The position numbers and the translations under genes are program-made. 64,000 nt of DNA from Escherichia coli (GTDB taxonomy: Bacteria; Pseudomonadota; Gammaproteobacteria; Enterobacterales; Enterobacteriaceae), in the NCBI RefSeq assembly GCF_001677475.2, contig NZ_CP015229.1, one strand, 5' to 3'. Positions within the stretch are counted from its first letter, which is position 1. Every line of letters begins with the position of its first letter. The notes under the pieces are model-generated. The model was given only the letters and a program-made list of their open reading frames with translations. It was not told the origin of the DNA and ran no database searches. Below, in pieces: positions 44,074 through 63,930 of this stretch.

Positions 44074-44075
44074 TC

Positions 44076-44110
44076 ATTAATGCGCCTGCGGGCGCATTAA
44101 TCACTTCTTT
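44076..44110 (+). terminator. Rho-independent terminator of hemW; left edge of the accessory island
   Basis: 11-bp perfect stem attaatgcgcc/ggcgcattaat, loop tgcg, followed by a T-rich tract. Confidence 0.7.
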
Positions 44111-44386
44111 TATCCCCCCGTTAATTAACTTCGGCAAAAATATATTTCTTACTGAATAAATATCGACGACATTTATTATATAAATGTAGTGAATATTTAC
44201 TCATCATTTATTGATTATAAACATGTACAACCTGGCGCACAAATTTAATATTTAATTTCTGACTTTATTTCAAGTTGTGATAAACATAGACAAGTTGTCA
44301 GACAGGTTAACCAATTTGTCGCACAAAGCACTGATAAGCACAATTAGATATCAACCAATTTCCATCCTTCAACAGGGAGTTTTTTT

Positions 44387-45373
44387 ATGAAGATGAGGTC
44401 ATTTACCCGCTCATTAGTCTGCGCATCCTTGCTGGCTCTGGTTAGCACTGGCGTAAACGCCGCAGAAAAAGTGACGTTAAAGTTAGCACACAACCTGGAA
44501 AGAAGTCATGTTGTACATCAGAGTTTTGAAGAGCTGGCGAAAGAGGTAAAACAGCTGTCAAAAGGTAATATGGTGATCCGTATTTATCCCAGCAGCCAGA
44601 TGGGTAATGCGCGAGAAACTATGGAATTGTTGCAAAATGGCGCACTGGATATGACCAAAGGTTCCGCCAGTGATCTGGAGTCTTTTGATAATATTTATGC
44701 TATCTATAATTTGCCGTTCTTATTTAAAGATCAGGCGCACTTCAACAAAGTTGTTTTTGGTGAAGTTGGTAAAGAAATTATGGACTCTACAAAAGATAAA
44801 GGCTTTTTTTCTTTATCAGCTTATGTAGCGGGTACTCGCAGTTTCTATGCGAAAAAACCGATTACTAAGCCAGCAGATCTTAAAAGACTGAAAATTCGTG
44901 TTCAGCCAAGTCCGACCACCATCAAAATGATTGAACTGATGGGTGGTTCACCCACTCCAATTTCATTTGGCGAAGTTTATACTGCGATGCAGCAAGGTGT
45001 AGTAGATGGCGCAGAAAATAACGTGCCTTCCTGGGTGCAGACTCGACATATTGAAATTGCCACAGTCTTTTCTGAAGATGAACACGCCTCAATTCCTGAC
45101 TTTTTGGTTATCTCCACCAAAACATGGAATAAATTAACCCCAGAACAGCAACAAATCCTCGAAACAGCGGCGAAGAAATCCGAAGCTTATCAACAAAAAT
45201 TGTGGGAAAAAATTGACGCTGACACACGTGCTCAGGCGAAAGCTATGGGTGGTGAAATCGTTAAGGTTGATAAAGCCCCATTCCGTGCCGCAGTTCAACC
45301 TCTGTTTGACGACTTCAAAAAAGATCCAAAACAAGCTGCTTTGTTAGAGAAATTCGACAACGCTGCTCAATAA
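44387..45373 (+). CDS. TRAP transporter periplasmic solute-binding protein (DctP family)
   Basis: 328-aa ORF with signal peptide and DctP-type layout; AT-rich promoter region upstream. Confidence 0.75.
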   Translation: MKMRSFTRSLVCASLLALVSTGVNAAEKVTLKLAHNLERSHVVHQSFEELAKEVKQLSKGNMVIRIYPSSQMGNARETMELLQNGALDMTKGSASDLESFDNIYAIYNLPFLFKDQAHFNKVVFGEVGKEIMDSTKDKGFFSLSAYVAGTRSFYAKKPITKPADLKRLKIRVQPSPTTIKMIELMGGSPTPISFGEVYTAMQQGVVDGAENNVPSWVQTRHIEIATVFSEDEHASIPDFLVISTKTWNKLTPEQQQILETAAKKSEAYQQKLWEKIDADTRAQAKAMGGEIVKVDKAPFRAAVQPLFDDFKKDPKQAALLEKFDNAAQ

Positions 45374-45408
45374 TATTTCGGGCCAGTCTCTGGCCCTGAT
45401 TTTCCAGG

Positions 45409-61126: not shown

Positions 61127-61217
61127 GAAAACATTCCTTTTACCCTATCTTTTGCATGGTTTTAGAATGAGCAACCCCATTTATCGTTCGGGGAAAGTGA
61201 TAGCGGAGATGATTGAA

Positions 61218-61958
61218 ATGAATAAGGTTATTGCGGTTTCAGCGCTTGCCATGGCAGGCATGTTTTCGACCCAGGCTCTGGCTGATGAGAGCAAAACAGG
61301 CTTTTATGTGACCGGTAAAGCAGGTGCTTCTGTTATGTCACTTGCAGACGAGCGTTTCCTGTCGGGTGATGGAGAGGAAACATCAAAATATAAAGGCGGT
61401 GATGGCCATGATACGGTATTCAGTGGCGGTATCGCGGCCGGTTATGATTTTTACCCGCAGTTCAGTATTCCGGTTCGTACGGAACTGGAGTTTTACGCTC
61501 GTGGAAAAGCTGATTCGAAGTATAACGTAGATAAAGACAGCTGGTCAGGCGGTTACTGGCGTGATGACCTGAAGAATGAGGTGTCAGTCAACACACTGAT
61601 GCTGAATGCGTACTATGACTTCCGGAATGACAGTGCATTCACACCATGGGTATCTGCAGGGATTGGCTACGCCAGAATTCACCAGAAAACAACCGGTATC
61701 AGTACCTGGGATTATGGGTACGGAAGCAGTGGTCGCGAATCGTTGTCACGTTCAGGCTCTGCTGACAACTTCGCATGGAGCCTTGGCGCGGGTGTCCGCT
61801 ATGACGTAACCCCGGATATCGCTCTGGACCTCAGCTATCGCTATCTTGATGCAGGTGACAGCAGTGTGAGTTACAAGGACGAGTGGGGCGATAAATATAA
61901 ATCAGAAGTTGATGTTAAAAGTCATGACATCATGCTTGGTGTGACTTATAACTTCTGA
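61218..61958 (+). CDS. Outer-membrane beta-barrel protein (family unassigned)
   Basis: ATG at 61218; signal peptide MNKVIAVSALAMAGMFSTQALA; alternating aromatic/hydrophobic strands; C-terminal ...VTYNF. Confidence 0.6.
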   Translation: MNKVIAVSALAMAGMFSTQALADESKTGFYVTGKAGASVMSLADERFLSGDGEETSKYKGGDGHDTVFSGGIAAGYDFYPQFSIPVRTELEFYARGKADSKYNVDKDSWSGGYWRDDLKNEVSVNTLMLNAYYDFRNDSAFTPWVSAGIGYARIHQKTTGISTWDYGYGSSGRESLSRSGSADNFAWSLGAGVRYDVTPDIALDLSYRYLDAGDSSVSYKDEWGDKYKSEVDVKSHDIMLGVTYNF

Positions 61959-62109
61959 CAAAACTGCTCCTGAAAGATAATAATTACCCATCTTCTGTAA
62001 TTAAACGAAGACTCCCTGCAGTAATTATACTGCAGGGTTGTTTGTTATCTGTTTCACAGGAGACTTCTGATTTTTATTCTCTTCACAATAATGTTGTCGA
62101 TATACTCCG

Positions 62110-63609
62110 ATGAATATCAGAAAGCTGTTTTATACGGACAATATATCCCGGATTTTATTGTTTTTATTCTTCCCGGGCATGTGTGTAATAACCACTGCCG
62201 CATGCGGATACACTGAGAAGAATGCCACCGGGAATGTGTTGCTGCTGTTTCTCCTTCTGATTCTTGCACACAGAAATACCCTTACATCCATTACAGCTCT
62301 GTTATTTCTGTTCTGTTGTGCACTGTATGCACCTGTCGGTATGACGTACGGAAAAATCAACAACAGTTTTATTGTCGCGTTGTTGCAGACCACGGCGGAT
62401 GAGGCTGCGGAGTTTACCGGGATGATTCCTGTTTATCATTTTCTGGTCAGTGCCGCGATTCTGGTGTTCATGGTTATTTTCTGGCGGACACACCACCGTG
62501 GTCAACGTAACGCGATGGCTCTGTTGTTATTCGTATTATGCTCTGTAAACAGCTGGCCGTTACGGATGGTTAAAGGAACAGTTGTGGGGACAACTGACAC
62601 ATTGCGTGAAATGCAGCGTTATGAACAACTGAGTCGGCACGGTGCTGACAGCTGGAAAATCCTGCCGGGAGCACCATTATATGACACGATTGTTATTGTT
62701 ACTGGTGAGAGTGTCCGCAGGGATTATATGTCGGTATATGGTTATCCCGAGCCAACCACACCATGGCTGAATACGGCTCCCGGTTTATTTATTGACGGTT
62801 ATACATCGGCAGCAGCCAGCACCGTGCCTTCCCTGAGCCGGACACTGATTTATGACTATGAGCAGAACCCTGATTCCGGCAACAACGTGGTGGCGCTGGC
62901 AGCAAAAGCAGGATACAGCACATGGTGGATATCCAATCAGGGAAAACTGGGAGAGCATGACACACGCATCTCTGTTATTGCTTCTGATGCGGACCATACT
63001 GTTTTCCTCAAGAAAGGCAGCTTTGCTTCCCGTAAAACGGATGACATGTTGTTGTTACAGGAAACAGAACGTGCGCTGGCAGATACATCCACTCCGAAGG
63101 TGATTTTCCTGCACATGATGGGGTCTCATCCGAACCCGTGTGATCGGCTTCACTCCTGGCAGAATAATTACCTGGAGCAGTATTCCCGAAAAATTGCCTG
63201 TTATCTTGCCAGCATCAGTAAACTGGATAACTTTCTTGGTCAGCTTGATGGTATCCTTCGCCGACACTCACGTCATTTCGCCATGCTTTACTTTTCTGAC
63301 CATGGGCTGTCGGTCAGCGACAGTGCTAATCCTGTTCATCATGATGGTCATGTGCAGGGAGGCTACAGCGTGCCCCTGATTATTACCGCCAGTGATATAA
63401 CCTCTCATCAGTCCCTCAGCAGAAAAATCAGTGCCCGTCATTTCACAGGTATTTTTCAGTGGCTGACCGGTATTCGTACCGAAAATATACCGCCATTCAA
63501 TCCACTGACAGACGAAGATAATGAACGCATTATGGTTTTTAACGGAGAGAGGTATGTACAGGAAGACAGTCTGAAACCGCAGCCGCTTATTCTTCCGGAC
63601 CACAGGTAA
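62110..63609 (+). CDS. Phosphoethanolamine-transferase-like membrane protein (sulfatase / alkaline-phosphatase superfamily)
   Basis: 499-aa ORF with N-terminal TM helices and the sulfatase-type segment IVIVTGESVRRDYMSVYGYP. Confidence 0.6.
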   Translation: MNIRKLFYTDNISRILLFLFFPGMCVITTAACGYTEKNATGNVLLLFLLLILAHRNTLTSITALLFLFCCALYAPVGMTYGKINNSFIVALLQTTADEAAEFTGMIPVYHFLVSAAILVFMVIFWRTHHRGQRNAMALLLFVLCSVNSWPLRMVKGTVVGTTDTLREMQRYEQLSRHGADSWKILPGAPLYDTIVIVTGESVRRDYMSVYGYPEPTTPWLNTAPGLFIDGYTSAAASTVPSLSRTLIYDYEQNPDSGNNVVALAAKAGYSTWWISNQGKLGEHDTRISVIASDADHTVFLKKGSFASRKTDDMLLLQETERALADTSTPKVIFLHMMGSHPNPCDRLHSWQNNYLEQYSRKIACYLASISKLDNFLGQLDGILRRHSRHFAMLYFSDHGLSVSDSANPVHHDGHVQGGYSVPLIITASDITSHQSLSRKISARHFTGIFQWLTGIRTENIPPFNPLTDEDNERIMVFNGERYVQEDSLKPQPLILPDHR

Positions 63610-63930
63610 TCATATATGGCAAACTGTAATACAGTTGCTTGTACTGAAAAGTATTCTGTATAAAACAGAATCCGTATTCATATCAGCACAAGGGACCACC
63701 AAATCCCGGCAGTATTCCTTACGTCAGTTATCCCGCATCACTCTGTGAGTGAGTTTTTTTATGAGGTTACTTTTTCATTGAATATAAATAATGAATAACC
63801 GCAGATTCTGATAATCCTCCTCCAGGGAACAATCAGGTAAACAGTAAATACATCAGTTAATACCATTTTGTCTTTTTAACAAAGAAAATATTCATGGAGT
63901 AAGTTCCCGGGCATTTGCCCGGGATGATTA

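Follow-up and report, generated by a model that had tools for sequence, protein, structure and literature searches.

The stretch from 44074 to 63930, downstream of hemW in the 64-kb window (the whole piece of Escherichia coli DNA analysed, 64,000 nucleotides), very probably consists of four mobile pieces unrelated to one another, which a local 29-kb inversion between two IS66 copies brought together, moving the end of a pheV island beside hemW. A preliminary description had presented the stretch as a 20-kb island after hemW, an old, IS-remodelled insertion with no integrase or tRNA. The region was confirmed to be accessory and mosaic with IS elements; of 5426 complete E. coli genomes, 1463 (∼27%) have its TRAP module and 442 have its Shango operon. 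A single island inserted at this site was not supported, as only the 3.2-kb TRAP module is native to it. The supposed age was not upheld either: judged from the sequences, the juxtaposition with hemW arose recently in a single lineage, and a full-length P4 integrase begins within the last 70 bases of the window, with pheV beyond it.

All of the genes listed in the preliminary description were recovered at the same positions in searches with NCBIfam, Pfam, PADLOC and PHROGs (Table 1). The AT-rich hypothetical genes are real; the orphan gene in the island interior has a GC content of 34.5% and a GC3 of 28.8%. This gene and the two orphans downstream of the PerC-family gene had no family in Pfam, NCBIfam, PHROGs or PADLOC.

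Table 1. Features of the region downstream of hemW, in window coordinates.
Feature	Coordinates	Strand	Evidence or remark
hemW	42937..44073	+	collinearity with K-12-like genomes ends with this gene; same annotation in matching genomes
TRAP dctPQM module	44074..46507	+	terminator-like hairpin and AT-rich promoter region, dctP, dctQ, 5' 587 bp of dctM; GC 42.9%
dctP	44387-45373	+	NCBIfam (TIGR00787, E = 3e-82), solute-binding subunit
dctQ	45409-45921	+	NCBIfam YiaM-like match; small permease
dctM, N-terminal 196 aa	45921-46507	+	NCBIfam dctM; large permease
IS66-family element, complete, 2505 bp	46508..49012	+	tnpA 46593-47012, tnpB 47009-47359, tnpC 47390-48982
IS1203/IS629-type IS3-family element, 989-bp left part	49013..50001	-	orfA 49621-49947 and part of orfB, split by IS66
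vasL-like type VI secretion gene, 3' remnant (GI-pheV interior)	ORF 50041-50550, within 50002..51311	+	VasL domain annotation
AT-rich orphan gene (GI-pheV interior)	50604-51311	+	
IbrA-like PAPS-reductase/DUF3440 gene	51452-52684	+	PF01507, PF11922
IbrB-like ParB-like gene	52669-53307	+	weak ParB_N match; RefSeq 'IbrB-like'
PerC-family gene	53347-53655	+	PF06069
Two orphan genes	53676-54320, 54385-54708	+	downstream of PerC-family gene
Shango operon SngABC (predicted anti-phage)	54756..60580	-	PADLOC; Pfam domains; three frames intact
sngC (DEAD/DEAH helicase)	54756-56954	-	PADLOC E = 4.6e-278; 732 aa
sngB (BrxD-like ATPase)	56951-58267	-	PADLOC E = 8.7e-187; 438 aa
sngA (TerB_N/TerB/TerB_C)	58271-60580	-	PADLOC E = 2.5e-99; 769 aa
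Second P4-type integrase gene, remnant (C-terminal residues 358-420)	60815..61006	-	tblastn, 76.6% identity, E = 7e-26
Outer-membrane beta-barrel protein	61152-61958	+	integrase-proximal module; shorter 246-aa product called elsewhere
Sulfatase-family phosphoethanolamine transferase	62110-63609	+	integrase-proximal conserved module, 61152..63609
P4-type integrase of GI-pheV, 3' end (stop and last 23 codons)	63928..64000	-	

Genome comparison showed that collinearity with K-12-like genomes stops exactly at the hemW stop codon (44073/44074), in agreement with the earlier observation that the conserved backbone is left after hemW. In K-12-like genomes hemW is directly followed by yggM, and across the accessory stretch the GC content is below the backbone level. 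Where it occurs, the TRAP module replaces the short hemW-yggM spacer, and the intact 3.2-kb module was found between these two genes in Ecol_881 and in sister strains. In the window the P and Q subunits are whole and the M subunit stops at residue 196 of 433, where dctM is cut by IS66 after codon 196, as mapped on an intact dctM. The transporter of the present strain should therefore be non-functional.

The part from 50002 to 64000 was assigned to the integrase-proximal 14 kb of a pheV-tRNA genomic island (GI-pheV). The minus-strand gene that leaves the window, already noted as such, is the 3' end of a 421-aa P4-type integrase, and 63931-63999 is 100% identical to its residues 399-421. A 29,032-bp draft contig (L014), 100% identical to 49014-64000, runs on into this integrase, tRNA-Phe(GAA), yqgA, speC, nupG and mltC. 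In L014 the full integrase carries the Arm-DNA-bind_3, Phage_int_M and Phage_integrase domains of the P4-type integrase of GI-pheV. In window-equivalent coordinates the tRNA-Phe(GAA) was predicted to occupy 65391-65466, ∼1.4 kb beyond the end of the window; it lies 198 bp from the integrase start and is followed by yqgA, speC and nupG, which marks integration at the 3' end of pheV, on the yqgA side. Of the earlier claim of neither integrase nor tRNA, the second half holds, as there is no tRNA within the 64-kb window, while the first does not, given the integrase remnant and the integrase 3' end; the apparent lack of both is due to where the window ends. The remnant is annotated as an integrase pseudogene in MLI104K2, whose pheV island, annotated with integrase and tRNA-Phe, is 99.2-99.3% identical to the island part described here. 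No copy of the tRNA-Phe 3' end (attR-like repeat) was found in 44000-64000, and the distal end of the island lies outside the window. GI-pheV islands are modular with the P4 integrase as the sole conserved gene; they are found in 52% of complete genomes, and attR, a direct repeat of the last 19-23 bp of the tRNA, is present in only 66% of them (PMC11537424).

Two insertion sequences separate this island part from the TRAP module. The first belongs to the IS66 family, with NCBIfam matches for TnpA, TnpB and the transposase and the ends GTAAGCG...CGCTTAC. Over its whole length it shares 99.8% identity with a plasmid copy flanked by an 8-bp target duplication, and other copies of the same IS66 type also carry matched 8-bp duplications. 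In the window the flanks are unequal, with TCTGCGC before the element and GGCCAGCG after it, so that no 8-bp duplication surrounds this copy. Junctions in draft contigs revealed that each flank has its partner at another IS66 copy; the mismatch therefore indicates recombination and is no argument against IS66 membership. The second element, IS1203, was recognised by its IS3-family orfA/orfB (NCBIfam, 48986-49947) and by an ALIL frameshift pseudoknot (49550-49666), which is the only Rfam match in the window. Only 989 bp of it lie within the window; the other 329 bp were found in a relative (L034), where they run into GGCCAGCG and then the IS66 left end, which gives a length of 989 + 329 - 8 = 1310 bp. 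Its insertion point was set by an intact vasL in another sequence (L033).

Four IS66 junctions were thus available. The window copy bears J1, where the 5' part of dctM (...TCTGCGC) meets the IS66 left end, and J2, where the IS66 right end meets GGCCAGCG and IS1203. J1 is shared by a contig (L003) that matches 35921-46569 with 100% identity and stops 62 bp inside IS66. J3, the IS66 right end followed by TCTGCGCCATT... and the 3' half of dctM, was obtained from L027, a 29,159-bp contig of the same assembly as L003, which extends from yqgA to yggM, continues through the dctM 3' half and stops 63 bp inside the IS66 right end; two contigs of one further assembly (L023 and L018) jointly cover the same segment. 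J4, in L034, joins IS1203 and GGCCAGCG to the IS66 left end and shares the 8-bp duplication with J2, while the dctM halves of J1 and J3 overlap by 7 bp on the intact gene. This pairing of target duplications across the four junctions therefore points to an inversion of 29,033 bp between two inverted IS66 copies. The duplication in dctM measures 7 bp, against the 8 bp given elsewhere by the same IS66 type.

IS-rich genomes of E. coli and Shigella are classic settings for chromosomal inversions between inverted IS copies. In the history that we propose, the 3.2-kb dctPQM module would have occupied the hemW-yggM spacer, and a first 2.5-kb IS66 copy would have entered dctM and inactivated the transporter. 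In the same lineage a second IS66 copy would have inserted in the opposite orientation into IS1203, itself earlier inserted in the vasL remnant of the pheV-tRNA island. The 29,033 bp between the two copies, comprising the dctM 3' half, yggM, ansB, yggN, yggL, trmB, mutY, yggX, mltC, nupG, speC, yqgA, pheV, the integrase and the proximal 14 kb of the island, would then have been inverted. Homologous recombination between the IS66 copies and one-step intramolecular transposition would give the same product, and any choice between them would be inferred. As a result, the island interior would abut hemW-dctPQ, with the integrase and pheV pointing away just past the window. A segment that continues to flip within the population, flanked by its IS66 copies, seems improbable.

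The same junctions could also have been produced by two simple IS66 insertions, in dctM and in IS1203, with the normal gene order kept and the 29-kb segment placed in the wrong orientation during assembly. The four junction sequences are equal in either orientation, and short reads therefore cannot separate an inversion from such an artefact. Every same-lineage assembly reached breaks at these IS copies, so that the orientation cannot be shown by those contigs, and it is only in them that the far side (pheV to the dctM 3' half, the second IS66 and the rest of IS1203), which is outside the window, was seen. As 2.5-kb inverted repeats are a classic orientation risk for assemblers, it is the window itself that carries the orientation. 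An artefact is nonetheless unlikely: the window reads through a complete IS66 copy without a break, pointing to a long-read or finished assembly, and IS-flanked inversions of such size are common in IS-rich E. coli. We infer from the window that the source assembly is correctly oriented and retain the inversion between the IS66 copies.

The arrangement in relatives and in complete genomes agrees with a rearranged pheV island. In one relative, a 393-kb contig (L021 and L025) is 100% identical to 37277-46507 and 56677-64000 and has the order island-integrase-pheV-yqgA...yggM-dctM-dctQ-dctP-hemW, with dctM intact; the island is there ∼12 kb from the hemW site and in the opposite orientation. Three junction probes were searched against the 5426 complete E. 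coli genomes. The dctM/IS66 junction (J1) and the IS1203/island junction were absent from them, and J2 gave no match in a single piece, those at ≥80% coverage consisting of two separate pieces 640-1300 bp apart. The juxtaposition would be lineage-specific because of these absences and because relatives identical over 9.2 kb and 7.3 kb are without it. A single old, IS-eroded 20-kb island integrated downstream of hemW, having lost its integrase and attachment site, would also explain why K-12 collinearity ends at the hemW stop codon, the low GC content, the IS elements and the lack of a tRNA in the window. It is very unlikely, however, given that the TRAP module stands alone at the hemW-yggM site in the 1463 genomes, directly followed by yggM; that the 14-kb part lies beside an integrase and tRNA-Phe in MLI104K2 and in window-identical contigs; that in relatives 100% identical wherever they share sequence with the window the island lies at pheV, 12 kb away; and that the window contains an integrase remnant as well as an integrase 3' end. 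It is scarcely credible that the island came from pheU and was brought beside hemW by a large rearrangement: although the integrase/phosphoethanolamine transferase/outer-membrane module, and even the whole IbrAB-Shango block, is found at pheU in L004, L006, L011 and L013, the window-identical contig leads into yqgA, speC and nupG on the pheV side, the 29-kb contigs connect the region with yggM and the absent half of dctM, and the observed orientations would need a deletion of ∼1.26 Mb as deduced from the K-12 map. A pheU origin was rejected on these grounds.

The cargo of the relocated pheV island part consists of regulatory, defence and envelope genes. The IbrA-like and IbrB-like genes form a pair that overlaps by 16 bp and matches phrog_2302 and phrog_2159; these nearest PHROG families are phage-borne. 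IbrAB of E. coli ECOR-9 reportedly activate prophage eib genes, and the original pair is said to lie elsewhere on the map, in a prophage-like island. Together with the PerC-like gene, the pair probably encodes transcriptional activators of horizontally acquired genes. The block of IbrA, IbrB, PerC and two orphans is kept beside Shango in many pheV and pheU islands. It is doubtful that the block is a functional partner of Shango; if so, it might serve as a DNA-modification or sensing module of PAPS-reductase/ParB type, for instance, or might regulate the defence operon, instead of being independent cargo. The module of outer-membrane protein and phosphoethanolamine transferase adjoins the integrase at pheV as well as at pheU, each time with different cargo alongside, and probably modifies the cell envelope.

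Within the Shango operon, sngA, sngB and sngC are adjacent, co-oriented and abutting or overlapping, and we predict that SngABC acts in anti-phage defence. The helicase gene is intact in the window and interrupted in sister strains. The Shango anti-phage system is already known and was originally discovered in defence islands of E. coli, and phage protection has been shown for its homologues (Millman et al. 2022, Johnson et al. 2022/2023).

For genome annotation, these results illustrate that an IS-mediated inversion can make a tRNA-linked island part resemble an integrase-less island at another locus, and that a window edge can conceal an integrase and a tRNA. For the strain, the consequences are the predicted loss of the TRAP transporter, a Shango operon that is intact as opposed to disrupted in close relatives, and the inversion of ∼12 kb of core genes (mutY, speC, nupG, pheV and others). 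The rearrangement is ordinary E. coli genome plasticity, in which all kinds of element were already known, and it opens no new biological question.

Compared with known systems, the island part resembles the GI-pheV islands of PMC11537424 in its P4-type integrase beside tRNA-Phe and its variable, modular, accessory cargo; it differs in that only the proximal 14 kb is seen, inverted relative to the hemW-side backbone, with IS1203 and IS66 separating it from the distal part. The main text of that paper does not mention Shango, IbrAB or phosphoethanolamine transferase cargo. The Shango operon has the same TerB protein, ATPase and DEAD/DEAH helicase as described (Millman et al. 2022, Johnson et al. 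2022/2023), and the PADLOC models match the window proteins over their full length with no notable difference. As in DctPQM/YiaMNO-type TRAP transporters, a solute-binding subunit and a small and a large permease are encoded in one operon, except that the large permease is truncated here. The ECOR-9 IbrAB likewise comprise overlapping PAPS-reductase/DUF3440 and ParB-like genes, a likeness of gene type. The proposed inversion, finally, shares with other IS-copy inversions of E. coli and Shigella two inverted IS copies at the segment ends and target duplications with swapped partners. It differs from the classic cases in its small size (29 kb) and in having one end within a genomic island, which is therefore made to look as if it were inserted at a different locus.

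An ORF listing, searches against protein families and a comparison to annotated genomes established the gene content of the region downstream of hemW and together recovered every gene named in the preliminary description. The coordinates are given in the table. The GC content fell from 51.5% in the backbone to 46.3% in 50002-64000 and 42.9% in the TRAP part. Searches of Pfam, NCBIfam, PHROGs and PADLOC yielded no hit to the AT-rich orphan, whose position upstream of ibrA is maintained across many islands.

Features between hemW and the end of the window (window coordinates)
Feature	Coordinates	Strand	Remark
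hemW	to 44073	+	
TRAP solute-binding protein DctP	44387-45373	+	
TRAP small permease DctQ	45409-45921	+	
Large permease DctM, first 196 codons	45921-46507	+	
IS66-family tnpA, tnpB, tnpC	46593-48982	+	
IS3-family orfB fragment and orfA	48986-49947	-	ALIL pseudoknot at 49550-49666
vasL-domain remnant	50041-50550	+	
AT-rich orphan, 235 aa	50604-51311	+	GC 34.5%, GC3 28.8%
IbrA-like PAPS reductase/DUF3440 protein	51452-52684	+	
IbrB-like ParB-like protein	52669-53307	+	overlaps IbrA
PerC-family gene	53347-53655	+	
Two orphans	53676-54320, 54385-54708	+	
Three-gene operon (Shango)	54756-60580	-	
Outer-membrane beta-barrel protein	61152-61958	+	
Sulfatase-family phosphoethanolamine transferase	62110-63609	+	

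The region is accessory, as had been proposed, since the K-12-like match stops at the hemW stop codon and both TRAP and Shango occur in a minority of genomes. In K-12-like genomes this stop codon is followed by a 154-bp REP-containing spacer and then yggM. Of the 5426 complete E. coli genomes, 1463 carry the TRAP module with a coverage of at least 80%, and where the operon is present yggM comes directly after it. In Ecol_881, for example, yggM is followed by ansB, yggN, yggL, trmB, mutY, yggX, mltC, nupG, speC, yqgA, tRNA-Phe (pheV), a tyrosine integrase and a variable island. The final ~174 bp of hemW (43900-44073) showed 81% identity to the K-12-like sequence, compared with about 96% over the hemW region, and this 3' end looks like a divergent recombination tract tied to the TRAP module. 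Relative to Ecol_881, the window also carries ~1.8 kb of additional DNA between loiP and speB (25931-27730), with a 520-aa ORF on the minus strand (26019-27581) that had a weak NCBIfam match to PRK11380 (E = 1e-5) and no PHROG match.

The further proposal, that 44074-63930 is one integrase-less island inserted at hemW, proved wrong: yggM directly follows the TRAP operon elsewhere, 50002-64000 is a pheV-type island, and the 3' end of an integrase gene lies within the window, whose last 69 bases encode integrase residues 399-421 with zero mismatches. The pheV tRNA-Phe island (GI-pheV) has been described as highly modular; 52% of complete E. coli genomes have it, and the P4 integrase is the one gene conserved in it (PMC11537424). 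The segment 50002-64000 showed 99.2-99.3% identity to the island of MLI104K2, which adjoins an annotated integrase and tRNA-Phe beside yqgA; in the window, the island part heads toward that integrase, in the orientation opposite to hemW. Between sngA and the gene for the outer-membrane protein (60815-61006) lies the C-terminal end of another P4-type integrase, a remnant with 77% identity to the full one, pointing to a stepwise build-up of modules at the tRNA. Islands at pheV and pheU in other strains share one module, composed of integrase, phosphoethanolamine transferase and outer-membrane protein, and the cargo beside it varies widely (loci L004-L013), including a sucrose regulon, type I restriction, IbrAB-Shango and ICE-like ParA/DnaB genes. 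In all, 3186 index blocks contain this exact phosphoethanolamine transferase protein.

The three-gene operon is identified as the Shango anti-phage system of TerB protein, ATPase and helicase, because it gave full-length PADLOC matches to SngC, SngB and SngA (E = 4.6e-278, 8.7e-187 and 2.5e-99, respectively). Shango was originally described in Pseudomonas and in defence islands of E. coli, and 442 of the 5426 complete genomes carry the operon with a coverage of at least 80%. The window copy is intact. In several sister strains (L017, L019, L020, L021) the contig ends at window-equivalent 55149, inside sngC, and the helicase is called at 601-602 aa, which suggests that an IS insertion disrupted the system there.

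The IS66 junctions were compared across related contigs. Intact dctM of a sister strain reads GGTTGTCTGCGCCATT at the break site. In the window, the dctM 5' part ends in GGTTGTCTGCGC, followed by the IS66 left end (GTAAGCG), and in contig L027 the IS66 right end (GCTTAC) is followed by TCTGCGCCATT. Comparison of both junctions with the intact gene therefore places a 7-bp overlap (TCTGCGC, 46501-46507 and the end of L027) between the dctM halves, the mark of transposition into dctM; the same IS66 type made 8-bp duplications at three other sites. At the other window junction, the IS66 right end abuts GGCCAGCG and IS1203, while a relative's contig (L034) carries IS1203 and GGCCAGCG against the IS66 left end, an 8-bp duplication. 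Upstream of that junction, L034 holds the vasL 5' part, an ImpA_N gene and a NERD/UvrD helicase gene. The IS1203 pieces sum to 1310 bp (989 + 329 - 8) and, judged from sequence, would form one complete IS1203 inserted into vasL. The window IS66 copy thus has mismatched flanks, one from each duplication pair.

Same-lineage draft assemblies were located by exact-protein look-ups, in which eight contigs carried the truncated DctM. L003 (NJSK01000012.1) was 100% identical to 35921-46569 and ends 62 bp inside IS66, and L014 (29,032 bp) was 100% identical to 49014-64000 and continues to the integrase, tRNA-Phe(GAA), yqgA, speC, nupG and mltC. L027 (NJSK01000014.1, 29,159 bp) belongs to the L003 assembly and covers yqgA to yggM, then the missing dctM 3' half, terminating 63 bp inside the IS66 right end. 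Two contigs of one further assembly (L023, L018) agree with this picture. By coordinate arithmetic, the IS-bounded segment is window-equivalent 49013-78045 (29,033 bp). A 393-kb contig of a relative (L021, L025) was 100% identical to 37277-46507 and 56677-64000 and shows the ancestral state, with intact dctM and the normal order island-integrase-pheV...yggM-dctM-dctQ-dctP-hemW. In another relative, which shares the dctM truncation of the window (L029, Logan contig ERR6099372_87), rimP-nusA-infB directly adjoins yggN-ansB-yggM; this contig is either chimeric or reflects an additional rearrangement.

If two IS66 copies in inverted orientation recombine, the resulting inversion leaves one flank from each pair on the window copy. 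One-step intramolecular transposition from the island IS66 copy into dctM would have the same outcome. Past position 64000, the inversion model would place, in window-equivalent coordinates, the integrase up to about 65193, tRNA-Phe at 65391-65466 on the minus strand, yqgA at 65572-66279, the genes from speC through yggM, the dctM 3' half up to 78045, an inverted IS66 copy at about 78046-80550, 329 bp of IS1203, and finally the vasL 5' part with the ImpA_N and NERD/UvrD helicase genes. The orientation is taken from the window itself, since the drafts are interrupted at the IS copies. An assembler can misplace a segment that lies between 2.5-kb inverted repeats; we regard such an error as improbable. 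The dctM/IS66 and IS1203/island junctions each occurred in 0 of the 5426 complete E. coli genomes, and the IS66/IS1203 junction was not found among them as one contiguous piece. Because these junctions were not found there, the rearrangement is taken to be recent and limited to a small lineage. Backbone 1-44000 reached at most 98.1% identity to any of the 5426 complete RefSeq genomes, and the lineage, which is annotated as E. coli, has no close finished relative among them; 50002-64000 showed 99.3-99.9% identity to islands of unrelated strains and looks recently shared.

What was observed is real, and the region is indeed accessory, with nothing new in kind. Inversions mediated by IS elements are routine in E. 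coli, and each of the families involved (Shango, IS66, IS1203, TRAP transporters, PerC) was already known.
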